A DNA stretch of 61,843 bases, filler included, from Nitrospinae bacterium RIFCSPLOWO2_12_FULL_45_22 (GCA_001803565.1; 6 parts of 6 records of this genome joined end to end with filler, not necessarily neighbours in it), one strand, 5' to 3'. Counted from the whole stretch's first letter, positions 8,784 to 53,892 are shown. Notes: generated by a model from the letters alone, not told the origin. Translations and numbers: made by a program.

Positions 8784-8883
8784 NNNNNNNNNNNNNNNNN
8801 NNNNNNNNNNNNNNNNNNNNNNNNNNNTTAATTAATTAANNNNNNNNNNNNNNNNNNNNNNNNNNNNNNNNNNNNNNNNNNNN
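8784..8883. other. Artificial contig linker
   Basis: N-run with TTAATTAATTAA (stop codons in all six frames). Confidence 0.98.
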
Positions 8884-20233: not shown

Positions 20234-21568
20234 TTGACCTGGACAAACGAGGATCGCTTAATGCTTTATTGTTGCCAAGCTAATATTGGCAACAGCGATA
20301 CAGATGAACTAATTGATACACAAAGAAACGGAATAGATTGGGGGTATTTTCTAAAAAAGGCGAGAACAGAAGGCATCTCGCCTCTAATTTATCACCGGCT
20401 TCAAAAAGTTGTTATAAGTAAGAATAATATCCCCAAGGATGTGATAGAAGAGCTAAAAAAAGATTATTATCTGAGTGCCACTAAAAATACCTTAATTTTT
20501 AAGGAGTTAGGAAAGCTCCTTGAGGCATGTAATAAAGTCGGGCTTCAGGTAATAGTCCTTAAAGGGGCGGCATTGGCGGAAACCGTATATGAGAATCTAG
20601 CTTTGCGGCCAATGTCAGATATAGACCTGCTGGTAAGAAAAGAAGACCTGTTGTCCCTTGATAAACAGTTAAAGACGCTGGGCTATTGGCCATCTGATAG
20701 ATCAGTTGACGATATTGACTTATATTCTCCATCATATCTGACCACCCTTGATTATAGAAATTCTTCCAATAATTCTCCTTCTTTTCATATCCACTGGCAT
20801 TTTGTCAATTCCACCATTCCCAATGACTCTTATATCAAGGATATTCCAATTGAAAATATATGGCGGGATGCTGAAAAAACCAGGATTGCCCAGGTAGAAA
20901 CCCAGGTGATGGTCCCTCACCACCTTATCATACACCTCTCAGAACATGCCTTAAGAGTTACGCACTCTCTGAGCAAATTTTGCTTCTTTTGTGATATCAA
21001 TGAAGCGATCACTTTTTACCAGGAAAGATTGGATTGGGATAAGCTGCTTAGAGAGAGCGATAAGTTCAACCTTAGTAGAATGGTCTATTTAAGCCTATAT
21101 TTTGCTGGTAAATTCCTGGCAACGAGGATACCCCATGATGTTTTATTAAAGCTAAGACCAAAACGGTTTACCCTAGGCGAAAAGCTCTTTATAAATTCTA
21201 TATCAAACAATGACCGCTCTCCGGGCTTAAGCTACCTAGTCCATCTGTCCATGAACAAAGGGTTATTTAGGAAGATGAGATTTGTCTGGAGGACATTATT
21301 CCCTCCGCGTCAAATCATAGCCCAAAGAAGCTATATCCCTCAATCAAGAGTCAGTCCTATGAATTATCTTCGGCGGATTAAGGAGGTTTTTTCGCACTTT
21401 TTTAAGATGGTAATTATTTTAGGGAAGAACTTCCGCAGGAAACCATGGAAAACTTGTAACAGTTCATGTTCTTTGTCATTTCGAGCACAGCGAGAAATCT
21501 TTCCGAGACCGGAGGTAAATAAAGATTCCTCCCTTCGGTCGGAAACATTTATCTTCGATAGGGGCTGA
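20234..21568 (+). CDS. Nucleotidyltransferase family protein (NTP_transf_5 type)
   Basis: VLKGAALA, RPMSDIDLLV, HIHW, HLSEH, CDI; last ~37 aa are encoded by an inserted repeat element. Confidence 0.85.
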   Translation: MTWTNEDRLMLYCCQANIGNSDTDELIDTQRNGIDWGYFLKKARTEGISPLIYHRLQKVVISKNNIPKDVIEELKKDYYLSATKNTLIFKELGKLLEACNKVGLQVIVLKGAALAETVYENLALRPMSDIDLLVRKEDLLSLDKQLKTLGYWPSDRSVDDIDLYSPSYLTTLDYRNSSNNSPSFHIHWHFVNSTIPNDSYIKDIPIENIWRDAEKTRIAQVETQVMVPHHLIIHLSEHALRVTHSLSKFCFFCDINEAITFYQERLDWDKLLRESDKFNLSRMVYLSLYFAGKFLATRIPHDVLLKLRPKRFTLGEKLFINSISNNDRSPGLSYLVHLSMNKGLFRKMRFVWRTLFPPRQIIAQRSYIPQSRVSPMNYLRRIKEVFSHFFKMVIILGKNFRRKPWKTCNSSCSLSFRAQREIFPRPEVNKDSSLRSETFIFDRG

Positions 21569-21576
21569 ACTGTTAC
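21456..21576. mobile_element. MITE-like element (near-identical copy at 44495-44617)
   Basis: Perfect TIR GTAACAGTTCA / TGAACTGTTAC; interior almost identical to the copy on contig 5. Confidence 0.8.
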
Positions 21577-21695
21577 AGAAACTTTTGCCCATGTCTGGTC
21601 CATGATTCATTATTCTTTGGGATCCAATTGTTAAAAAGAAATAAAGAATTTACGGCTATTCTCTCTACCATAACTTATATCCTTAGCATGGTACT

Positions 21696-21795
21696 NNNNN
21701 NNNNNNNNNNNNNNNNNNNNNNNNNNNNNNNNNNNNNNNTTAATTAATTAANNNNNNNNNNNNNNNNNNNNNNNNNNNNNNNNNNNNNNNNNNNN
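21696..21795. other. Artificial contig linker
   Basis: N-run with TTAATTAATTAA. Confidence 0.98.
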
Positions 21796-22157
21796 CTTTG
21801 CTTGGCAACGTTAATTTAAGGCCAGAAGCCCTTTCCGGGGAGATAGCCCGTACTTATCAGACTATATTGGTTCTGGCCAACGGTTTTATTTTTACTGCAA
21901 TGATCTGGGGAGCGATCCTGGCCAACCTGATTGATGGTCAGTTCCGCAAAGCGGCGGGCTTTGCCCTGGCTGCGGCGGCTTGTTCTTTATTCGGTTTGAT
22001 CCATTCGCCTATGCCTAATGCTGAGTTGATCTTACCCTGGGCAGCACCTTCTTTTGTCCCGATAGAGTTTGCTATGGCTTATTCCCTCATGGCCCTGATA
22101 TTTTTAGCTATCGGAGGAACCATCCAGCCACAAAGATGGGTTAATCGTAAGGAGTGA
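21796..22157 (+). CDS. C-terminal fragment of an NCS2-like membrane permease
   Basis: LANGFIFTAMIWGA...LID...SLFGLIHSP; truncated by the contig start. Confidence 0.65.
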
Positions 22158-22315
22158 GCCGTTAGCAGTAAGGAGTAACTTCTCACTGCTTACTGCTTAC
22201 TCCTCACTGAATTGTTTGCGCTCTTTGCGTCTGGTGTATAATTCTATAGCTATAATCTGTGTTATCCGTGAGATCTGAGATTCTCTGAATATCTACTATA
22301 GACGGAGTAGGACTT

Positions 22316-22504
22316 ATGAAAGTGTATTTTCGGGGTAAGATATATGAATATGCCGGGATGATCATGGTTAAAGACCTGCTGAAAGACCTGGCTCTATCTG
22401 CCCAGGCGGTTCTGGTAATAAAAAATAATGAGGTAATCACCGAGGATGAATTCGTGGGAGAGACCGACGAAGTAAGGGTAATCAGTGCTATATCAGGAGG
22501 ATGA
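22316..22504 (+). CDS. ThiS/MoaD-like sulfur carrier (TtuB-like)
   Basis: 62 aa ending in ISGG; directly upstream of a TtuA N-terminus. Confidence 0.85.
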   Translation: MKVYFRGKIYEYAGMIMVKDLLKDLALSAQAVLVIKNNEVITEDEFVGETDEVRVISAISGG

Positions 22505-22513
22505 TGAGAAGAG

Positions 22514-22591
22514 ATGATCTGTAGCCAATGCCAGGCCGAGAAGGCCGTGATTAATCTGCGGCAATATCTCCTGTCCCTTTGTAAAGAACAA
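22514..22591 (+). pseudogene. ttuA: 5' part (Zn-finger) of an interrupted TtuA/TtcA tRNA thiolase
   Basis: MICSQCQAEKAVINLRQYLLSLCKE matches the TtuA N-terminal CxxC...LC motif; homology stops at ~22591 and resumes at 26433. Confidence 0.75.
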
Positions 22592-22750
22592 GTCTTTTTG
22601 CCTTTCAAGAATCCTTCCAGTCAAAATACGGTGTTCAAGATCATAGATCGACAGGGAATCATTATCCATCTCTTCTTCCCCGTGGATTGTCAAAATATAT
22701 TCACGGTTGCGGATCTTATCCCGCATCTCTTTCACAATCCTGTCAAACAC
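22592..22750 (-). pseudogene. Truncated DUF4258-like (RelE-fold) cassette gene
   Basis: YILTIHGEEEMDNDSLSIYDLEHRILTGRILERQKD, cut at the island junction. Confidence 0.6.
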
Positions 22751-22791
22751 TCACATCCTCTGTTTCTGTCTTTTTCCACGCACCCCATTAT

Positions 22792-22883
22792 CACATAATG
22801 TTTGCGGATAAAAGAAGTTTGCGAAGCAAATTTGGACGGAGAAACCTGCAAGGTTTCGTAGTCTTTTATCCGCTGTTATATTC
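22792..22883 (-). repeat. attC-like site 3 (core GTT mutated to ATT)
   Basis: Minus strand GAATATAAC-AGCGGATAAAAGA...TCTTTTATCCGC-AAAC-ATTATGTG. Confidence 0.7.
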
Positions 22884-22971
22884 CCCGAAGGGCAAAAATT
22901 TAGTGCAATGCCCCGAAGGGAAATTTTTGAGTTGCGAGGGCGCCGAAAATTCTGATTAGAAAAGTATCAAA

Positions 22972-23511
22972 TTAAAGATCACTATTCAAGTCATCAATTA
23001 TTGTAATAAATCTGCCTTGGGTGGTAGAGTTGCTTGTCTTATTTAATGGTTCTCCATATTCTATCCAAAAAAGCTCTTTATCAAAAACCGAATTCGCTTT
23101 TGCGACCAAATCTACAAAATATACTTCTAGCGATGAATATGCATTATCAATAGCAAGCTGTTCTTCTTCGGTCAAATCAGGATAGATTTCACTCAAAACA
23201 GTATTAAACTCATTCAAAGAAGCGCTTAAATCATTCGCAGCAGTGAAAAGCTGTTTCTCCAATCCGTTAAAGTCTAACTTCGCTGAGCCACTGGCTTCGG
23301 CGCGGGCGGTGGCAATAGTAGCACTAAGCAACCCCTCAAATTTGCTGGCAGCAGCATTAAGTTGGGCAACTGGCCGGATTATCTTTATTTGACCAGGACC
23401 TAATACTAGGCCGAATGTTTGTACGCTATCAATGCCTGCATACGTAGGTTGAGCCGCGCCAAATAAAAGAACAAAAAACCCAAAAATGATTAAAATATTA
23501 TTTTTTTTCAT
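22972..23511 (-). CDS. Cassette-borne secreted hypothetical protein
   Basis: Signal peptide MKKNNILIIFGFFVLLFGAAQPTYA; lies between two attC-like sites. Confidence 0.7.
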   Translation of the reverse strand: MKKNNILIIFGFFVLLFGAAQPTYAGIDSVQTFGLVLGPGQIKIIRPVAQLNAAASKFEGLLSATIATARAEASGSAKLDFNGLEKQLFTAANDLSASLNEFNTVLSEIYPDLTEEEQLAIDNAYSSLEVYFVDLVAKANSVFDKELFWIEYGEPLNKTSNSTTQGRFITIIDDLNSDL

Positions 23512-23616
23512 AGTATTTTTCTCCTTTCTTATTTTTTATAAATTTTAACCTTTATTATTTATCTATATACTTATCTTATATTTAAACTTTTTGGAAGTCC
23601 AGGCGCCCGAGCAATT

Positions 23617-23721
23617 GAATATAACGTTTAGGCGTTTGCGAGGTTGCCGCTGAGCATTAGCGAAGCGGCAATTTGAGCGGAGCGCCAAAGGTGCGAAGCC
23701 GCAAACGCTGTGTTATCTGAC
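23617..23721 (-). repeat. attC-like site 2
   Basis: Minus strand GTCAGATAAC-ACAGCGTTTGCG...CGCAAACGC-CTAAAC-GTTATATTC; the upstream ORF stops inside the TAAC box. Confidence 0.78.
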
Positions 23722-23928
23722 GTCTGGCATCTTTGAATGTGTTACTTTATCCTCTACTCTTGAAACTACCTTAGGGTTCAGTTCTTTTTCATTATTCCGT
23801 AAGTTTTGGAAAAAAGTATGCAGGTTGTAATTTGCCCGTCTGGCAAGCTCTTCACCTGCTTTGCGGACATCTTGAACAATTGGATCTTGCCACATAATCA
23901 CACCTCCATTAACTCTTCTGGAGTACAA
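23713..23928 (-). CDS. Small putative antitoxin paired with the PIN gene
   Basis: MWQDPIVQDVRKA...; overlaps the PIN gene (likely start at the MWQ Met). Confidence 0.65.
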   Translation of the reverse strand: MYSRRVNGGVIMWQDPIVQDVRKAGEELARRANYNLHTFFQNLRNNEKELNPKVVSRVEDKVTHSKMPDVR

Positions 23929-24371
23929 ATAATTGGCGTATAAATACCAAAGAACCCATTTATCTTCATCAATTTCTTGATGACTTCACCATTTGCAAGA
24001 TGAGCACAATTCCAGGTTACAAGATAATCAATATTATGTGCAGAGGCTACAGCAAGATGAGCGGCATCACGAAAAGATTTCTCTGGAATTTCTAATCTTT
24101 CCATATATACCTTAGCCATTTCCTCAACCTTATCATTCAATTCCAGATGGGGAAAATCCTTTATCTCTTCCAACCTTCTTTTGGCAGCTTCTAGATCACC
24201 CAAGCCAGCTTCTTCAACTACAACCTCAGAAATAAAAACATCAAATCGTCTTATAGCCTTAGGCCACCATTCTCGTGTAATCTCTTGATGAGCAAGAACT
24301 ATGATGTCTCGACTGGGCTTGGAAGTATAATAACTTACCACAGTCGTCTCAAGATATATTGATTCTTTCAT
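23898..24371 (-). CDS. PIN-domain (VapC-like) toxin, cassette-borne
   Basis: SIYLETTVVSY, DAAHLAVA, YLVTWNCAHLAN, PIICTPEEL. Confidence 0.88.
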   Translation of the reverse strand: MKESIYLETTVVSYYTSKPSRDIIVLAHQEITREWWPKAIRRFDVFISEVVVEEAGLGDLEAAKRRLEEIKDFPHLELNDKVEEMAKVYMERLEIPEKSFRDAAHLAVASAHNIDYLVTWNCAHLANGEVIKKLMKINGFFGIYTPIICTPEELMEV

Positions 24372-24411
24372 TAAAACACCTTTTCTGCACTATCAAATCA
24401 ATAAGCCAGAT

Positions 24412-24494
24412 GTCAGCTAACGTTTCGGCATATACGATGTTGCGATAGCAATATGGGCGAAGCGTTAGCGTAGCCGTATATGCCGTGTTATGTG
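24412..24494 (-). repeat. attC-like site 1
   Basis: Minus strand CACATAAC-ACGGCATATACG...CGTATATGCCG-AAAC-GTTAGCTGAC. Confidence 0.78.
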
Positions 24495-24508
24495 ATGTAG
24501 GCCAAATT

Positions 24509-25033
24509 TTATGCGTTGTAAAAATATAAAAATGAAACTACAACCGCAATAATATATACGATTGAGCTTAATAAGTGAAATTTGATAGTATCAGCGACCG
24601 ATTTAGTTAGAAGTTTTTTCTGCTCCTCGTCTTCTGTCAATGAAGTGAAAGCTTTGGCTTGCTGTTGTTTGCGAAAATTCACAATCAAAAACCCAATAGT
24701 TAAAATAGCAAACCAAATAAAGTAATTGGAAAAATTGAAAGCAAATAATAAATAACCAACCAACGCACCATAACCCAGAAGTATCGGAAACATTTTAGGG
24801 AAATACTTATGGTAAGTTGAAAAACGATAGATTTGCATTAAAACAAAAATGCTTACTAAAACAAATATCGCAAAAAGAACAACGCTCATTTCAATTTTTC
24901 CAATTACGAGTCCGATTATTAAAAGAATCACAGCAAGCCAAAGCGAAGCTCCGCTTATCACTTCCGACTTGCTTCCTCTCATAAAGCTTTGCCAGCCACC
25001 CAAGAGGAGTAGAAAAAGCACAATGTAAATCAT
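24509..25033 (-). CDS. Cassette-borne membrane hypothetical protein
   Basis: About 6 TM segments, very AT-rich; first cassette of the array. Confidence 0.7.
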   Translation of the reverse strand: MIYIVLFLLLLGGWQSFMRGSKSEVISGASLWLAVILLIIGLVIGKIEMSVVLFAIFVLVSIFVLMQIYRFSTYHKYFPKMFPILLGYGALVGYLLFAFNFSNYFIWFAILTIGFLIVNFRKQQQAKAFTSLTEDEEQKKLLTKSVADTIKFHLLSSIVYIIAVVVSFLYFYNA

Positions 25034-25074
25034 ATTTTTACGTTAATTATAGGTTAATAAAATTTGGCCTATTT

Positions 25075-25145
25075 CACATAACTCGTTCACAGACGACAAT
25101 GTCGTCTTTTTCCCGATTTTAGAGGTATAGACGACAGTGTCGTTT
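25075..25145 (-). other. Putative attI-like primary recombination site
   Basis: Core G/TTATGTG at 25082; two palindromes, AGACGACA-A-TGTCGTCT (25091-25107) and AGACGACA-G-TGTCGTTT (25129-25145). Confidence 0.55.
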
Positions 25146-25173
25146 ATCCCTTCCTATAGGTTCTATTCTTAAA

Positions 25174-26328
25174 TCATATTCCACCACCTCCCTTTATCCC
25201 TAAAATTTGATCCAAAGGATTTTTTATCTTCATTAAATCCTTGTTGCTCACATGAGTATAAATCTCCGTAGTCTTTGAACTTTTATGCCCTAATAATTCC
25301 TGAATATACCGCAGATCAATCCCATTTTCCAGTAGATGTGTGGCAAATGAATGTCTAAGACTGTGTATCGTCACTTCTTTCTTAACCCCTGCCCGATCAC
25401 ATGCCATCTCAAATATCCTTTGAGCCGTTCTTATTGAAATATGTCTTTCCTTATCCGGTCCGGGAAATAACCAGAGGGCTGGTTTATATCTATTGCAATA
25501 CTCACTTGATACTTTTAGGGCTGACTCTGAAAGCAGAGTATATCTATCTTTTCTGCCTTTGGCACCTCTTACGTGAATCAGCATACGCTTGCTATCGATG
25601 TCTTCAGGTTTTAATCTTACTACTTCGCCAACTCTAAGACCTGCCGAATAAACAAGCATTAATATCGCTTTATGTTTCACATTATCTAACGATGTTAAAA
25701 TCTTTGCAACTTCTTCCTGGCTCAGGACAACGGGCAGCTTCTTGTCTTTGCGGGGCCGTTTGATTTCGTAGAGGAACTTTCTTTTCAACGTGCCCCCGTA
25801 GTAAAATTTCAGGGCGTTGATGGCTTGGTTCAGCGTAGAGGTGGCGGATTGCTTTTCTTCCGCGAGATAGAGGAGATAATTCTTGACGTCGCTCTCACTG
25901 ATTACGGATGAACTCTTACCCGCATGACTGAGAAAATCCCTATTGAAGTAGAGATAGGCTTTTACGGTCTTGTGGCTGTATTTTCTTGAAATCATCTCAC
26001 GCCGGAGGTCTTCAAGATTGTTCACACCATGGGCCTCAGTATGGGGGCGCGATTGGAAGACGGTCGCCTCTCTTGCAGCGACAGGGGCGCCTGATTGTTC
26101 ATTTGGGATGGATCTCTTCAGGGCAGGATCGATACGGATTTCTTCGCTTTCAAAAACCTTGAGAATCTTATCTATGATTTCGTCGGTATGGGAAAAACTC
26201 CAGGATTTGTTTTCCGGATGCCAACGGTAACCGGGGATGCTTTTGACCTTGGCGACGAAGTCAGGGCTGTAAGGAAAGGTAACGGCTATCTTGCCCGCGG
26301 CGCTTCTTGTGAGAGTTACTATGCCCAT
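25174..26328 (-). CDS. Integron-integrase-like tyrosine recombinase lacking the IntI-specific insertion
   Basis: SAM-like N-domain (RKYSHKTVKAY, STLNQAINALKFYY), KKLPVVLS, YSAGLRVGE, KGRKDR, HSLRHSFATHLLE, IQELLGH, TTEIYTHV; RBS AAGGAG before ATG 26328. Confidence 0.9.
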   Translation of the reverse strand: MGIVTLTRSAAGKIAVTFPYSPDFVAKVKSIPGYRWHPENKSWSFSHTDEIIDKILKVFESEEIRIDPALKRSIPNEQSGAPVAAREATVFQSRPHTEAHGVNNLEDLRREMISRKYSHKTVKAYLYFNRDFLSHAGKSSSVISESDVKNYLLYLAEEKQSATSTLNQAINALKFYYGGTLKRKFLYEIKRPRKDKKLPVVLSQEEVAKILTSLDNVKHKAILMLVYSAGLRVGEVVRLKPEDIDSKRMLIHVRGAKGRKDRYTLLSESALKVSSEYCNRYKPALWLFPGPDKERHISIRTAQRIFEMACDRAGVKKEVTIHSLRHSFATHLLENGIDLRYIQELLGHKSSKTTEIYTHVSNKDLMKIKNPLDQILGIKGGGGI

Positions 26329-26396
26329 CGGCGATACTCCTTTGTAAGGCTTCAGCACTGCCTTCAGGATTTATTACCGGGCCGTAAATCGGTTGT

Positions 26397-26425
26397 AGAA
26401 TATATGGGGGATTCCGGATTGTCAA
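26397..26425 (-). promoter_or_regulatory. Sigma70 promoter for the recombinase
   Basis: TTGACA - 17 bp - TATTCT on the minus strand, right at the island boundary. Confidence 0.65.
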
Positions 26426-26432
26426 GAACAAG

Positions 26433-27254
26433 TTTATAAAGAGATTCAGAAGGCAGCTCCGGCTTACTATCAGAAGGTATCAGATGTTTAATCAGGGCGA
26501 CCGGATTTTGCTGGCTGTCTCGGGTGGTAAAGACAGCTCGGTCCTCTGGCGCTTACTAACCGAACAAGGCTATAAGGTAGATGGTATTTACCTGGATTTA
26601 GGGATAGAAGAGGGGTTCTACTCGCAAAGGTCTAAAGAATATGCCCAGCAGCTCGCCCAAAATTTAGGGAAAGATCTCATAGTCTTTGATCTTAAGAGAG
26701 AAACAGGACGGAGTATCTCGGAATTAAAGCAACGGAGTCAGCGGAAGAGTTGCTCGCTATGCGGCAAGCTGAAGCGCTACTTCTTGAACAAAATAGCCCG
26801 TGAGCAGGGCTACCAGTGCCTGGCTACGGGACATAACCTGGATGATGAGACTGCGGCCTTACTCCAGAGCACCTTGCGGTGGCAGCCGCATTACCTGGCC
26901 CGGCAAGCACCGGTGCTAGAAGAGCGAGACGAAGGCTTTGTGCGCAAAGTTAAGCCCCTGGTAAGATTTACTGAAAAAGAAATGGCCCTCTTCGCCTTCC
27001 TCAACCAGATTCCTTACCAGGAAGATGAATGTTCTTATGCTACCGGTGCCGCTTCTCTGTTCCTCAAAGGAATCCTTAACCAGATGGAGGAGCGCTCCCC
27101 GGGGACAAAGATCAGCTTCTACCAGGAGTTTCTCAGGATAAAAACAGTCTTTAGAAAGGAATCCCCTCCACCGCCCACCCGCTGTAGCCTCTGTGGTATG
27201 CCTACTATCGCTGAGATATGCTCTACCTGCAAAATCCTTGCCTCAGTCTCTTAG
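26433..27254 (+). CDS. ttuA: 3' part of the TtuA/TtcA tRNA 2-thiolase (PP-loop)
   Basis: FIKRFRRQLRLTIRRYQMF...AVSGGKDS, CSLC, TGHNLDDE, C-terminal CxxC...CxxC; N-terminal Zn finger lies 3.8 kb upstream. Confidence 0.82.
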   Translation, partial: FIKRFRRQLRLTIRRYQMFNQGDRILLAVSGGKDSSVLWRLLTEQGYKVDGIYLDLGIEEGFYSQRSKEYAQQLAQNLGKDLIVFDLKRETGRSISELKQRSQRKSCSLCGKLKRYFLNKIAREQGYQCLATGHNLDDETAALLQSTLRWQPHYLARQAPVLEERDEGFVRKVKPLVRFTEKEMALFAFLNQIPYQEDECSYATGAASLFLKGILNQMEERSPGTKISFYQEFLRIKTVFRKESPPPPTRCSLCGMPTIAEICSTCKILASVS

Positions 27255-27256
27255 CG

Positions 27257-27396
27257 GTAAGCATGCAGCTATCAGCCGTCAGCTTTTTCCGTAAAAAGTA
27301 AGTCGTGAGGCGTAAGGAGGATTTCCCCCTAACGCCTTACCCCTCACGCTCTCACCAAATAAGCTGAAAGCTCAAGGCTGATAGCTGCACGCTTTT
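27257..27396. mobile_element. MITE-like element related to 2352-2523
   Basis: Ends GTAAGCATGCA / TGCACGCTTTT; same nested TCAGC and GGCGTAA 7-mer arrays; flanks TCTTAGCG / TCTCAGTG (6/8 match). Confidence 0.65.
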
Positions 27397-27398
27397 TC

Positions 27399-29555
27399 TC
27401 AGTGTATCAGCATATTCTGGACAATCAAGGCAGCAAAGACCAGGGCTACTATAGACATCAGTTTGATAAGGATATTAAGGGAAGGCCCCGATGTATCCTT
27501 AAAGGGATCGCCTACGGTATCACCCACCACGCCCGCCTTATGGGCCTCAGACCCCTTACCGCCATAAGCACCACCCTCTATATACTTCTTGGCATTATCC
27601 CAGGCACCACCGGCATTGGCCATCATCACTGCTACCAGGAACCCGGTAACAATGGCCCCGGTCAGCAGTCCCACCAGGGCAGCATCACCCAGCAGAAAGC
27701 CAATAAGGAGTGGGGCTATGACGGCCATCATGGCTGGTATGATCATCTCTTTCTGGGCACCTATGGTAGCAATATCTACACAGCGGGCATAGTCCGGCTT
27801 TGTCTTGCCCTCCATAAGCCCCGGTATCTCCCGCCACTGTCGTCTTACTTCATTGACCATACTGTAAGCGGCCCTCCCTACGGCTTGCAAGGTAAAGGAA
27901 CAGAACAGAAAGGGAAGCATACCACCGATGAATAGCCCCGCTAAAACCAGGGGGTTAGTAAGGGTCAGGCTTGTTTCTACTGGAGGTAACCCGGCCTTTG
28001 CCCGGGCAAAATCGGCTGCCTGGATAAAGGCAATAGTCAGACCCAGGGCAGTAAGGGCTGCACTGCCGATAGCAAAGCCTTTCCCGGTAGCGGCGGTAGT
28101 ATTCCCTAAAGAATCCAGGGCATCAGTCCGTTCTCTTACCTCTGGGGGTAACTGTGCCTGAGTGGCAATACCCCCGGCATTATCCGCTACTGGCCCATAG
28201 GCATCGGTCGCCAGGGTAATACCCAGGGTAGACAGCATGCCGATACCCGCCAGAGATATGCCATAGATGCCGATAAGAAAATCAATCCTGGCATCGCCAG
28301 TATTGCCACGGGCCAGGTAATAGGCAGCCAGTAGGGCAATAGCTACGGTAATTATAGGAATCCCGGTAGATTGCATACCGACGGCCATACCGCGGATTAT
28401 GGTGGTAGCCGCACCGGTCTGGGATGCATCAGCAATATCCCTGGTCGGTTGGTACTCCTGCGAGGTGTAATATTCCGTAGCAACACCAATAATAATCCCG
28501 GCAATTAACCCTGCCAGCGTAGCATAGAATATACCGACATAGCCCTGCTCTTTCAGGATATAGCTTACCCAGGGTATTTCCCAGTCACCCATGATATATT
28601 TTATGGCGATCAGGGATATAAGGGCGGTACCGATAGCCGCTATCCAGACACCTCGCCGGAGCGCCATAAGCAATACCCCTTGCTCTGCTTTGTCAGAAGA
28701 AACCCGGACAAAGAAGGTACCAAATACTGAACACAGGATACCGATCCCGGCAATTACCAGGGGTAGGATCATGCTATTAAGCCCCAGGGCCTTTACGCTC
28801 TCGGCACTACTCATATAAAAGGCGGCAAAGCCTATCGTAATAGGGGCTATTATTGAGCCTACATAGCTCTCATAGAGGTCGGCACCCATCCCGGCAATAT
28901 CCCCCACATTGTCCCCCACATTGTCGGCAATTACGGCCGGGTTGCGGGGGTCATCCTCGGGTATACCAGCCTCTACTTTGCCTACCAGGTCTGCCCCTAC
29001 ATCGGCTGATTTGGTAAAGATACCACCACCTACCCGGGCAAATAGGGCCACACTGGATGCCCCAAAACTAAAGGCCGGTATGATCTGGATAGCAGTAAAC
29101 ATATCTAGCTTTGAAGTAAGGATAAAGTAGATGCCAGTAACCCCGATCACTCCTAAGCTTACTACGGTCACCCCCATGACACTGCCAGAAAAAAAGGCTA
29201 CCCTGAGTCCGTGGTTCAGGTTATTACTCACAGCCTCGGCCGTACGGGCATTGGCGCTGACACCAATCTTCATACCAATAAACCCCGAGAGGAGGGAGAG
29301 GATAGCACCTACGAGAAATGCCAGCGAGGAGTATGAGGATATGAAGAGACCCAATATGATACCTACCACAATAATAAACAGGGTGAGGACTTTGTATTGG
29401 CGGCTCAGGTAAGCCATGGCCCCATCATGGATAGCCTGGGAGATCTCGACCATCCTGGCATTACCGGTACTTTGCCTCAGGACATATACCGTAGCAAAAC
29501 CGACAAATATTAGACCTAATACACCTGACATGCCTGAAAACATTAACCAGTTCAT
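27399..29555 (-). CDS. hppA: Membrane-bound ion-translocating pyrophosphatase (K+-dependent type)
   Basis: [35 protein letters not shown] (Ala indicates K+ dependence), DTVGDPFKD. Confidence 0.95.
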
Positions 29556-29574
29556 CCCCTCCTCCTTTCTAAAT

Positions 29575-30114
29575 CTAGTCTTGCTTAAGTAGATTTTCTA
29601 CTATAGCTACCGCTTCTTCTACTTCTCTGGCAACTGCCTCCTCTTCCGAGGGATCAAAGGGGTTTAAGACATAATCAGCCGTCTCTTGCCCTATTGGTGG
29701 TCTACCCACTCCCACCCTGATCCTGGTAAACTCATCCGTCCCTAGCTCTTCCAGTATAGAGCGAATACCTTTATGGCCAGCGTCACCCCCACGATATTTT
29801 AGCTTAATCCTTCCTAAAGTTAAGTCCACATCGTCATGGATAACAAGGAGTTTGTCAGGGGTTTGTCTCAGCCCCTGGAGTAAGGGTTTCACGGCCTTTC
29901 CGCTCAGGTTCATAAAGGTTCGAGGCTTAGCCAGGATCACCGGCTGATCCAAAATATAACCCTTTCCCCACCAGGCTAGATATCTCTTGGTTGTTAAGAA
30001 AATACTATATTTCTCTGATAAACGAGAAATAACACGAAACCCTATATTGTGCCTGGTATTTTCATATTCTGTACCGGGATTACCTAGCCCGACAATTATC
30101 CTGGCAACAAAAAT
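29575..30114 (-). CDS. pth: Peptidyl-tRNA hydrolase (start codon unclear)
   Basis: Frame extends upstream of the ORF track to IIVGLGNPGTEYENTRHNIGF; also KPRTFMNLSG, HDDVDL, GHKG. Confidence 0.9.
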   Translation of the reverse strand: MFVARIIVGLGNPGTEYENTRHNIGFRVISRLSEKYSIFLTTKRYLAWWGKGYILDQPVILAKPRTFMNLSGKAVKPLLQGLRQTPDKLLVIHDDVDLTLGRIKLKYRGGDAGHKGIRSILEELGTDEFTRIRVGVGRPPIGQETADYVLNPFDPSEEEAVAREVEEAVAIVENLLKQD

Positions 30115-30120
30115 CTTTCC

Positions 30121-30744
30121 CTATTGCTCCTCTGAGGACGAGGGCTCTTCAACCGGGGCTTCCGCAGTGGGTACTGCTTCCCTGGCTAGACCAGTGATAC
30201 TTACCACTACTTCTTCAGGATCAGTCAGAACTTTTAGACTTTTATCTAGCTTAAGGTCCGTAACATGGATGGCATCCCCGATATGCAGCCCAGAAACATC
30301 CACTTCTATATATTCAGGAATTGATGCTGGTAAACACTCCAGGCTCAGTTCCTTTAAGGCGTGATGGAGCATACCTTCTCCCTGGACAACACCAACTGGC
30401 TCACCAACGAGGACTATCGGCACAGCTACATCAATTTCTTTATCCATGAATACTTCATATAGGTCTACATGGAACAGGGCCCGGGTAACAGGATTAACCT
30501 GGAGTTCTCTCATTAATACATGGCGCTCCTTCTTATCTTCCCCTTCAAGGTTAAACTGAAAAATGGTATTCTCACCTAACCCAGAGCTAAGGAGGTTTTG
30601 AAAGGCCCTGAGGTCTATTGAGATTGGGAGATTCTTTTCACCGCCATATAGCACCCCTGGAAGGCTGCTGTTCCTTCGGAGCTGCCGGCATGCCCCTTTG
30701 CCTCTCCCCTCTCGTATCCTACCTGTCAAGATTATAGTTTCCAT
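30121..30744 (-). CDS. rplY: 50S ribosomal protein L25/Ctc
   Basis: GKGACRQLRR, PGVLYG, HVDLY, LHIGDAIHV; upstream of pth. Confidence 0.95.
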   Translation of the reverse strand: METIILTGRIREGRGKGACRQLRRNSSLPGVLYGGEKNLPISIDLRAFQNLLSSGLGENTIFQFNLEGEDKKERHVLMRELQVNPVTRALFHVDLYEVFMDKEIDVAVPIVLVGEPVGVVQGEGMLHHALKELSLECLPASIPEYIEVDVSGLHIGDAIHVTDLKLDKSLKVLTDPEEVVVSITGLAREAVPTAEAPVEEPSSSEEQ

Positions 30745-30773
30745 CCTTCCACCTTTAAAGATTAAGTTATATT

Positions 30774-30873
30774 NNNNNNNNNNNNNNNNNNNNNNNNNNN
30801 NNNNNNNNNNNNNNNNNTTAATTAATTAANNNNNNNNNNNNNNNNNNNNNNNNNNNNNNNNNNNNNNNNNNNN
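30774..30873. other. Artificial contig linker
   Basis: N-run with TTAATTAATTAA. Confidence 0.98.
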
Positions 30874-44190: not shown

Positions 44191-44290
44191 NNNNNNNNNN
44201 NNNNNNNNNNNNNNNNNNNNNNNNNNNNNNNNNNTTAATTAATTAANNNNNNNNNNNNNNNNNNNNNNNNNNNNNNNNNNNNNNNNNNNN
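44191..44290. other. Artificial contig linker
   Basis: N-run with TTAATTAATTAA. Confidence 0.98.
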
Positions 44291-53792: not shown

Positions 53793-53892
53793 NNNNNNNN
53801 NNNNNNNNNNNNNNNNNNNNNNNNNNNNNNNNNNNNTTAATTAATTAANNNNNNNNNNNNNNNNNNNNNNNNNNNNNNNNNNNNNNNNNNNN
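53793..53892. other. Artificial contig linker
   Basis: N-run with TTAATTAATTAA. Confidence 0.98.

Follow-up and report, generated by a model that had tools for sequence, protein, structure and literature searches.

Integrons are now defined, searched for and counted by an insertion that is specific to their integrases (IntI) and is held to be necessary for the recombination of attC sites. The 'reverse-orientation' integrons of Spirochaetota, in which the integrase gene is co-oriented with the cassettes as in the locus described here, also have IntIs that carry this IntI-specific domain. For archaea, the accessible text of Ghaly et al. (PMC9668308) describes a putative attI immediately downstream of intI, arrays that are mostly clusters of attC sites lacking integron-integrases (CALINs), and IntIs that carry the IntI-specific domain, in which they differ from the insert-less family treated below. 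Recombinases without the segment have been met near attC sites as well: the available part of Cury et al. (PMC4889954) counts 50 of them in complete genomes, 21 in genomes without IntI, and mentions four that fall between IntI and Xer with fewer than three sites each, concluding that they are not IntI. In addition, the 'Integron-like' subgroup of simple recombinases of Smyshlyaev et al. comprises, in the portion of the preprint at hand (10.1101/542381), IntI together with insert-less recombinases of IS91 and IS3, the insertion being specific to IntI and the insert-less relatives being tied to insertion sequences and not to attC arrays. Our literature search, outside of which subscription journals and supplements mostly lay, returned no paper linking insert-less recombinases to attC arrays. 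Here we describe a case of this kind in a 61843-base stretch of DNA from Nitrospinae bacterium RIFCSPLOWO2_12_FULL_45_22 (the window), where the gene of an insert-less recombinase, an attI-like site and an array of gene cassettes interrupt the gene ttuA.

Our analysis leads us to regard this unit as an integron-like platform of the working type that captures genes by means of a tyrosine recombinase of a sister lineage of IntI and is inserted in ttuA, a reading to which we assign a probability of about 80%. The anatomy of the unit, the family-wide linkage of gene, attI-like site and array, the gain of a cassette at attI in a relative, the sharing of cassettes between genomes and the lack of a canonical IntI in five array-bearing genomes are matters of observation. 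Each cassette begins with TT, carries a single open reading frame (ORF) or toxin-antitoxin pair and closes with a folding attC-like site whose last base is G. The recombinase would bind the folded attC hairpin and the attI site and exchange strands at G|TT, and, in the manner of integrons, circular cassettes would enter at attI and be cut out between adjacent sites. Catalysis by the recombinase, single-strand substrates, a choice of strand and a part played by the HARP-like domain at its N-terminus are presumed features of this scheme.

The window consists of six contigs joined by N44-TTAATTAATTAA-N44 linkers (window 8784-8883, 21696-21795, 30774-30873, 44191-44290 and 53793-53892), and gene neighbourhoods should therefore not be read across the linker points. 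The unit falls within a single contig of 8978 bp (window 21796-30773). On the minus strand the order is a promoter-like site, the recombinase gene, the attI-like site and four cassette units, the last of them truncated (Table 1). An earlier note on this DNA, made from the sequence alone, had placed the system at 22792-26425, but the true unit runs from 22588 to 26432; it also has a fourth structured site, the attI-like one, and a fourth, truncated cassette. Its statement that the array lies 3' of the recombinase gene on the same strand agrees with our annotation, since the gene and all cassettes are on the minus strand.

The same note had proposed that the recombinase lacks the segment found in IntI, and this was borne out. 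Among solved structures VchIntIA (2a3v) is the closest relative in both sequence and fold, with archaeal XerA in second and third place by sequence; query residues 117-278 and 303-384 align with chain residues 8-171 and 238-319, so that 24 residues stand in place of the 66 of VchIntIA between the two stretches. When 37 family members, 43 IntI and 8 Xer-like proteins are aligned, the columns occupied in IntI only cover IntI1 residues 197-244 and fall between query residues 292 and 299, and the spacing from G.KDR to H.LRH is 58-62 in family rows (62 in the window's recombinase) as against 100-102 in IntI rows, counting rows with both motifs. The catalytic-motif residues are all conserved in the family alignment. 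Because of the 24 versus 66 residues, the IntI-only columns and the shorter motif spacing, we conclude that the I2 segment, an insertion of roughly 40 residues near patch III of the kind modelled by IntegronFinder's intI_Cterm profile, is absent from the recombinase.

Profile searches gave a corresponding picture. Pfam finds the SAM-like and catalytic domains of phage-type integrases. The NCBIfam model of integron integrases TIGR02249 reaches 225.6 bits at a cut-off of 265, in two pieces that skip the insertion, in agreement with the earlier view that this is no standard IntI; a second integron integrase model, NF011946, reaches 173 at a cut-off of 435. The score of 233.7 for NF040815, a model named 'site-specific tyrosine recombinase/integron integrase' (XerA), is just over the cut-off of 220, and the protein remains far below the cut-offs of XerC and XerD. 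Thus none of the marks of IntI, i.e. the insertion, a score above the model cut-off and a place inside the IntI clade (see below), was found.

The three imperfect palindromes of 80-105 bp bounded by TAAC and GTT(A) that had been reported are present on the minus strand, although the array-distal one (22791-22883) closes with ATTA in place of GTTA and the lengths come to 71-104 nt, varying with the point at which the boxes are cut. In general, ATAAC and 1-3 nt lead into a perfect stem of 9-12 bp, a branched centre and the returning half of the stem, after which 4-6 nt with AAAC at their end precede GTTA. With their imperfect palindromes, RYYYAAC/GTTRRRY boxes and inner stem the sites have the features by which attC membership is judged. 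Folding z-scores against 200 shuffles lie between -3.2 and -5.8, with the exception of the minus strand of the middle site (-1.58). As had been stated, one ORF stops inside a TAAC box: the stop codon of the small 71-aa ORF in cassette 2 (23713-23715) is the TAA of ATAAC. The beginning of each cassette complements its own end, and the three pairs quoted for this were correct: GTTATGTG at the attI junction pairs with CACATAAC, GTTAGCTGAC with GTCAGATAAC except for one mismatch, and GTTATATTC with GAATATAAC, the complementarity of cassette 1 spanning 29 nt at 90%.

To these sites a covariance model (R1) was applied which had been built from 26 short sites of other loci and none of the window, and in whose alignment TAAC and GTT are invariant (26/26). 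Over the 61843 bases it gave exactly three matches, all on the minus strand, namely the sites of cassette 1 (65 bits, E 3.1e-12), cassette 2 (43.3 bits, E 5.5e-7) and cassette 3 (45.4 bits, E 1.7e-7). R1 performs poorly on the sites of Bacteroidota and Ignavibacteriota (L065, L069), which are 120 nt long; a pattern finder described below does detect them.

The geometry of the sites has its own character. Spacers measure 1-3 nt after AAC and 4-7 nt before GTT while the stem is perfect (9-13 bp), and the extra bases must therefore lie on the L'-R' arm, where they form an unpaired bulge of 4-5 nt (RRAAC) directly beside GTT, i.e. the R' box. By the definition in the available part of Bouvier et al. 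(PMC2727003), against which together with one canonical site (dfrA14) the arms were judged, extrahelical bases lie on the R''-L'' arm and cleavage takes place in the R' box; in the dfrA14 site both spacers are 3 nt long and the 5' arm of the top strand bears the extra bases, whereas the present sites lack the arrangement of R''-L'' extrahelical bases with an unpaired central spacer by which the strand is chosen in integrons. At least 90% of sites have a C just before GTT; its counterpart in canonical attC is the G that is conserved behind AAC on the bottom strand, as given in the same accessible text (PMC2727003). Many sites have in common an inner CCAAAT between two small hairpins.

Directly 3' of the stop codon of the recombinase gene lies a structured region of about 95 nt, which we call the attI-like site, and the first cassette begins at the TT of its core. 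Most close homologues have, after the stop codon, two palindromic boxes, a C-rich/AAAT spacer and RAAC(G/A)AG|TTA. In 11 loci this core lies no more than 200 nt past the stop, at ~27 times the density found elsewhere, and a similar core, AAAACAAAG|TTA, is found in class 1 attI1 on a plasmid used as control (L081). The window has an attI-like site beside the recombinase gene, with cassettes inserted at G|TT.

Homologues of the recombinase are abundant. Nearly all of the scored candidates in a protein search were relatives (7995/8000), the best 120 being 56-99% identical and from many phyla; a scan with one genome for each species gave 599 matching stretches, among them 577 relatives, and the best 80 loci, picked by similarity of the recombinase protein alone, were kept. 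They span Nitrospirota, Bacillota, Bacteroidota, Chloroflexota, Spirochaetota, Patescibacteria, Atribacteria and others, plus seven archaeal lineages. A strict pattern finder (AAC, a short spacer, a perfect stem of at least 9, GTT) detected 58 downstream sites with the polarity seen in the window versus 2 upstream of the gene, or 1.91 versus 0.04 per 10 kb, with controls of 2.0 sites in the whole set for mononucleotide shuffles and 3 for reversed sequences; at least one such site is present in 25 of the 43 loci with at least 1.5 kb of downstream DNA. At E<=0.01, R1 produced 70 matches in the 80 loci, of which 63 are downstream on the strand of the gene, 6 downstream on the opposite strand and 1 upstream, in keeping with the prediction that homologues carry co-oriented downstream arrays; outside the training set 37 of 44 matches are downstream on the same strand. 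All six opposite-strand matches belong to a single Dehalococcoidia contig, L019, where a second array of six sites (L019:7032-10359) faces the first in opposite orientation, its recombinase, if any, lying beyond the contig end. In 24 loci of many phyla the gene, the attI-like site and the array follow one another in unchanged order on one strand, and in all 24 array-bearing loci the gene is co-oriented with the array. In the complete genome of Desulfitobacterium sp. Sab5, 39 R1 sites extend over 44.3 kb from the gene onward, with none in the next 20 kb past the array. A large sister family without the insertion heads true cassette arrays.

Comparison of loci also gives information on the movement of cassettes. 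Two contigs of one Spirochaetota metagenome-assembled genome (MAG), L032 and L034, are 99.7% identical over 5.8 kb including gene and attI and then differ by a segment of 1434 bp, which holds a 395-aa ORF and a hairpin site with GTT at both edges and beyond which the first cassette of L032 resumes; the difference is one cassette gained or lost at attI. The window's truncated DUF4258 cassette is complete in two other loci, as an inner cassette in L020 and as the first one at attI in L022. Homology with them stops at window 22592/22593, and the common left boundary of the three copies is the (G/A)TT of (G/A)TTATGTGATAATGG, with unrelated DNA before it. Furthermore, the 7 nt that follow GTT were compared with the 7 nt in front of AAC in the next site; at least 6 positions were complementary in 25 of 47 neighbouring pairs, as opposed to 108 of 2000 random pairs and 8 of 67 for the two boxes of one and the same site. 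Cassette gain, shared boundary and pair complementarity together locate the exchange within the downstream box, in its GTT, and make the site the 3' end of each cassette, as in integrons.

For the phylogenetic tree 265 columns were used, the insertion columns and the N-terminal domain being excluded and two fragments as well as L065 being dropped beforehand, and a quick IQ-TREE search was run. In accordance with the separate lineage that had been suggested, the 43 IntI rows form one side of a branch which excludes the window's recombinase (approximate likelihood ratio test of the Shimodaira-Hasegawa type, SH-aLRT, 99), the 37 family rows form one side of another (SH-aLRT 93), and IntI and the family together are split from the 8 Xer-like proteins (SH-aLRT 99). 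The tree thus supports the recombinase family as a probable sister lineage of integron integrases. Archaeal and bacterial members are intermixed within it, and so are the phyla. Several MAGs contain more than one recombinase copy (L001 and L008; L021 and L024; L032 and L034). Genes that occur in multiple copies, with phyla mixed and at the heads of arrays, fit poorly to a chromosome-dimer resolvase, and instead of a single-copy, vertically inherited gene with a dif site the window has a gene on a polymorphic insertion. Although protein length and domains are similar to those of XerA and XerC/D and the XerA model of NCBIfam is passed, the Xer systems, including CTX phage and pdif modules, use dif sites of 28 bp, as compared to hairpins of 70-130 nt with a cassette structure here.

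Compared with canonical integrons (class 1 and the chromosomal ones of Vibrio), the likenesses comprise a recombinase gene by its insertion site, cassettes of an ORF and a folding site with TAAC and GTTA boxes, crossover at GTT, cassette-specific complementarity of the box ends, toxin-antitoxin cassettes and cassettes of unknown function, an attI core that resembles that of attI1 (AACAAAG|TTA), the best match in the PDB and the sister position to IntI. The differences are a recombinase without the insertion, below both integron-integrase cut-offs and with an extra HARP-like N-terminal domain; a gene that points into the array, there being no divergent integrase gene since it and all cassette ORFs are on the minus strand; an attI with two palindromic boxes; and the bulge on the L'-R' arm.

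The insertion in ttuA is documented by the empty site. A metagenome contig (L083) consists of window 21796-22587 (100%), CTGC and window 26433-26605 (99.4%) and encodes an intact ...LCKDCFIKRF..., its ttuA being uninterrupted; therefore 3845 bp replaced 4 bp (CTGC) of ttuA. The joint 22587>26433 with CTGC is present in Logan contigs of three runs from three studies (X1, X2 and X9), and in X1 and X2 mismatch-free contigs also bridge both junctions of the occupied form. Contig depths are rough figures, and the window itself may derive from one of these runs; the empty form has 7.7 and 7.64, the occupied form 7.9 and 8.08 (X1) or 7.6 and 6.2 (X2). In X9 and X12 some parts of the unit had no contigs over them. 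The insertion is polymorphic in the population, empty and occupied alleles coexisting in two runs. In the occupied allele the TtuA zinc finger is without its last Cys.

At the right junction the sequence reads GAACAAG|TT, and the joint lies on G|TT within a second copy of the attI core on the strand opposite to attI. RAACRAGTT occurs twice over the full length of the window, here and at the attI core, against 1.27 expected by chance. This suggests an attI-type crossover between a site at the unit end and a look-alike in ttuA. Target and unit end have TTGTMAAGA in common. An imperfect direct repeat marks both junctions, the first 9 nt of its left copy being target DNA, and ACAAG is found on the plus strand at both ends of the insert (22588-22592 and 26428-26432). 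Three simple models were tried for the left junction, namely one crossover at G|T, exchange of one strand followed by replication, and exchange of both strands followed by segregation. Each of them predicts CTGC at one junction, and none yields the ACAAG that both junctions carry. An insertion of the IS91 type, the target of which we take to be CTTG/GTTC, was rejected because the unit has no HUH transposase, and indeed no transposase was found among the ORFs of the 3845 bp. Circle junctions of the unit or of single cassettes were absent among the contig joints, and contigs cannot show rare forms.

The right junction on G|TT, the TTGTMAAGA common to target and unit end, and the coexisting alleles are the reasons to consider, tentatively and as something we would not expect to hold, a transposase-free mobile unit in which the insert-less recombinase would move the whole module (its own gene, attI and cassettes) by an attI-type crossover into a chromosomal look-alike site and the HARP-like domain would take the place of the IntI insertion in reading folded or branched DNA. 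If this were true, gene capture and self-mobility would be done by one enzyme. The polymorphic ttuA insertion is itself a natural case of a whole platform that moved without a transposon.

A polymorphic insertion bounded by a 15-nt imperfect repeat, together with the fact that simple Xer-like recombinases move some elements according to the available part of the preprint (10.1101/542381), could also mean that this is a small integrative element whose recombinase does nothing but move the 3.8-kb unit at ttuA, the hairpins being cargo or terminators. We consider this improbable. None of the 80 other loci has ttuA next to the gene, and neither the end motif nor an inverted attI core upstream is conserved (4 matches in 22 kb of upstream DNA, none comparably placed), so that neither could be adopted as a habit of the family. 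Moreover, 39 sites over 44 kb are unfit for a small element, and the end complementarity, the shared cassettes and the cassette gain at attI need recombination at the hairpins.

CALINs are common, and most archaeal arrays are reported as such in the accessible portions of the two surveys (PMC4889954, PMC9668308); a search for IntI that is based on the insertion would probably file the present arrays there. The cassettes could accordingly have been made by a canonical IntI that resides elsewhere or was lost, the Xer-like recombinase being an unrelated neighbour such as an island integrase, and the source genome may have a canonical intI outside the window. This explanation has, in our estimation, even slimmer chances. 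CALINs by definition lack an integrase, whereas the present arrays have a specific recombinase family at their head: the succession of gene, attI-like site and array is constant in the 24 loci, cassette gain took place exactly at the site beside the recombinase gene, and recombinase and cassettes entered ttuA as one unit. In addition, TIGR02249 gives no match over the cut-off in any of five array-bearing genomes (two complete ones among them), and the best match in each is the array's own recombinase, in two pieces that skip profile positions ~180-230. That the palindromes, which do follow ORFs and fold stably, are ordinary intergenic repeats (like repetitive extragenic palindromic, REP, elements) or terminators with end complementarity arising by chance is very improbable indeed, as the sites have no T-tract, the sole terminator-like call on one of them (22841-22857, the inner hairpin of the array-distal site) is on the plus strand, opposite to the ORFs, the TAAC/GTT boxes are invariant, the sites show strand asymmetry and confinement downstream of one recombinase family, and more than half of the neighbouring pairs are complementary versus 5% of random pairs.

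There are however several points that weigh against an integron-like platform. The evidence for such a system, though strong, is comparative. The strict finder saw no site in 18 of the 43 loci with enough downstream DNA, most loci are contigs of MAGs, and L032 and L034 could represent two strains that were binned as one. The tree comes from a quick search, with the support of the family branch at 93 and not starred; its outgroup is made up of 8 Xer-like proteins, which were drawn from four genomes and include three with long branches, and the IntI sample, obtained with one IntI1-like query, contains only IntI1 relatives down to 43% identity. The training sites of R1 had been picked for perfectly paired stems, which makes its covariation count circular, and 8 of them are Sab5 sites, so that the model is partly trained on that array. 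The window's copy may be partly decayed, because its last site has ATT for GTT and its last cassette is broken. Finally, given that the site geometry is unlike that of canonical attC, the analogy to the chemistry of IntI may be inexact in detail.

The N-terminal domain of the recombinase is HARP-like as far as profiles and a predicted model allow this to be judged, and it may have a role in the binding of folded or branched DNA. Pfam HARP matches residues 11-84 with E 0.0015, below cut-off (18.5 vs 25), and matches 11 of 28 family members at E<=0.01, the best with 6.2e-6. A profile of 23 N-terminal domains had a sole significant match among PDB sequences, 4o66 (SMARCAL1 HARP; E 1.8e-4). The predicted model of the domain (mean predicted local distance difference test, pLDDT, 89.7) found 4o66 at rank 5 in Foldseek (probability 0.97, template modelling score, TM, 0.49-0.54, E 0.04), and VIA-align gave Z values of 7.5 for T4 UvsW, 6.1-7.0 for the N-terminal domain of XPB and 4.2 for 4o66, all of them under the caution line of 8; Foldseek with the whole recombinase model was uninformative for this domain. 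The HARP domain of SMARCAL1, UvsW and the N-terminal domain of XPB presumably belong to one structure-specific DNA-binding family. HARP was found in none of 10 N-terminal extensions of canonical IntI representatives that were tested. Many such representatives with the insertion (P0248, P0253, P0254, P0270, P0276, P0280, P0293, P0296, P0315 and P0341) are 420-520 aa long, with 100-200 extra N-terminal residues, and in P0248, P0253, P0293 and P0296 the SAM-like domain is matched in two stretches.

The sister family has at least 7,900 close relatives in Nitrospirota, Bacillota, Bacteroidota, Chloroflexota, Patescibacteria and several archaeal phyla. If the present reading is confirmed, cassette capture would exceed by far the spread reported in surveys and would extend to phyla held to be free of integrons, many 'orphan' arrays may have an owner, and the recognition of folded attC sites would have been solved at least twice, once by I2 and once perhaps by a HARP-like domain. 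Which minimal changes turn a Xer-type enzyme into a cassette recombinase then becomes a testable question. What the window adds beyond the earlier note is the natural, polymorphic insertion of a whole platform in ttuA and the HARP-like N-terminal domain of the recombinase.

Table 1. Positions of the unit, its parts and the interrupted gene in the window
Feature	Position	Strand	Remarks
Whole inserted unit, 3845 bp	22588-26432	-	Recombinase gene, attI-like site, three complete and one truncated cassette
Promoter-like site TTGACA-17-TATTCT	26397-26425	-	5' of recombinase gene; 10/12 matches
Tyrosine recombinase, 394 aa	25174-26358	-	From GTG 26358; core-binding and catalytic domains like IntI/Xer
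N-terminal extra domain of recombinase, residues 11-84	26107-26328	-	HARP-like beta-beta-alpha-beta-beta-alpha fold (predicted)
attI-like site	25080-25173	-	Palindromic 15-mers 25129-25143 and 25091-25105, spacer, core GAACGAG|TTA 25080-25088
Cassette 1	24421-25081	-	174-aa predicted membrane protein (24509-25033); attC-like site (24413-24495)
Cassette 2	23625-24420	-	PIN-domain protein (23898-24371; PIN 7.2e-6); small ORF (23713-23928); attC-like site (23617-23720)
Cassette 3	22799-23624	-	179-aa protein (22972-23511), signal-peptide-like N-terminus; attC-like site (22791-22883)
Cassette 4, truncated	22588-22798	-	First 53 codons of DUF4258 gene (22592-22750), cut at ttuA junction
ttuA, 5' fragment (zinc-finger LIM)	22514-22587	+	Pfam TtuA_LIM_N residues 3-25, E 0.0015, below cut-off
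ttuA, 3' part (tRNA 2-thiolation PP-loop enzyme)	26433-27254	+	NF049949 232 bits, below cut-off
15-nt imperfect direct repeat TTGTMAAGAACAAGT	left 22579-22593, right 26419-26433	+	At both junctions
GAACAAGTT, second attI-core copy	26426-26434	+	Opposite strand to attI; G|TT exactly on junction 26432|26433

With regard to the remaining features, the recombinase has an alternative start at ATG 26328, giving MGIVTL..., and the -35 hexamer of the promoter-like site sits within the terminal repeat of the unit; in a promoter and terminator scan of the region the site totals were not above those of shuffles. The 3' part of ttuA aligns with NF049949 over residues 1-251 (profile 43-289 of 292), and an ORF from ATG 26484 within it stays open. 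A gene for a ThiS/TtuB-like sulfur carrier (22316-22504) lies directly upstream of the interrupted ttuA. The 174-aa protein of cassette 1 had no family in profile searches, and the PIN protein of cassette 2 and the small ORF overlapping it are likely a toxin-antitoxin pair. The protein of cassette 4 matches Pfam DUF4258 with residues 21-53 on profile positions 2-34 of 71 (E 0.0041, below cut-off). A search of the contig with Rfam brought nothing relevant besides three chance-level matches to miRNAs.

Exact GAAC-N4-GTTC boxes, which we take to be the LexA box of Gram-positives, occur ~30-80 nt upstream of the recombinase start in L035, L039 and L042; within the upstream 230 nt they are found in 3 of 71 loci, all Bacillota, with 0.003 expected per region. 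By analogy to classical integrons this hints at a possible SOS control in these three members. No such box is present upstream of the window's recombinase.

Near-identical sites with the stem GCGGATAAAAG and an inner CCAAAT occur in members of Altarchaeum, Dehalococcoidia and Atribacteria and at window 22791-22883 (L013, L019 and L044 contain this type, with near-identical sites also in L009 and others), so that one site type is common to both domains. A longer site class of 118-128 nt with the same boxes and spacers was seen in Bacteroidota, Ignavibacteriota and Latescibacterota (L065, L069, L048), and in L069 near-identical sites recur at short intervals (~320 nt).

In runs X1 and X2 the contig depths at window 22835-23001, a stretch that contains a 25-nt direct repeat with CCCCGAAGGG (22880-22904 and 22908-22932), sum to 160-248 compared to about 7-15 on the flanks, and it must therefore be present in many other contexts in these communities. 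Around the PIN/small-ORF pair (window 23844-24029) many contigs of all four runs share parts and then diverge, with a contig depth of 94-104 at window 24004, so that variants of the toxin-antitoxin cassette occupy several contexts. In the preceding contig, a 12-nt inverted repeat (TGTAACAGTTCA / TGAACTGTTACA) encloses ~100 nt at the 3' end of a 444-aa ORF (window 21463-21585).

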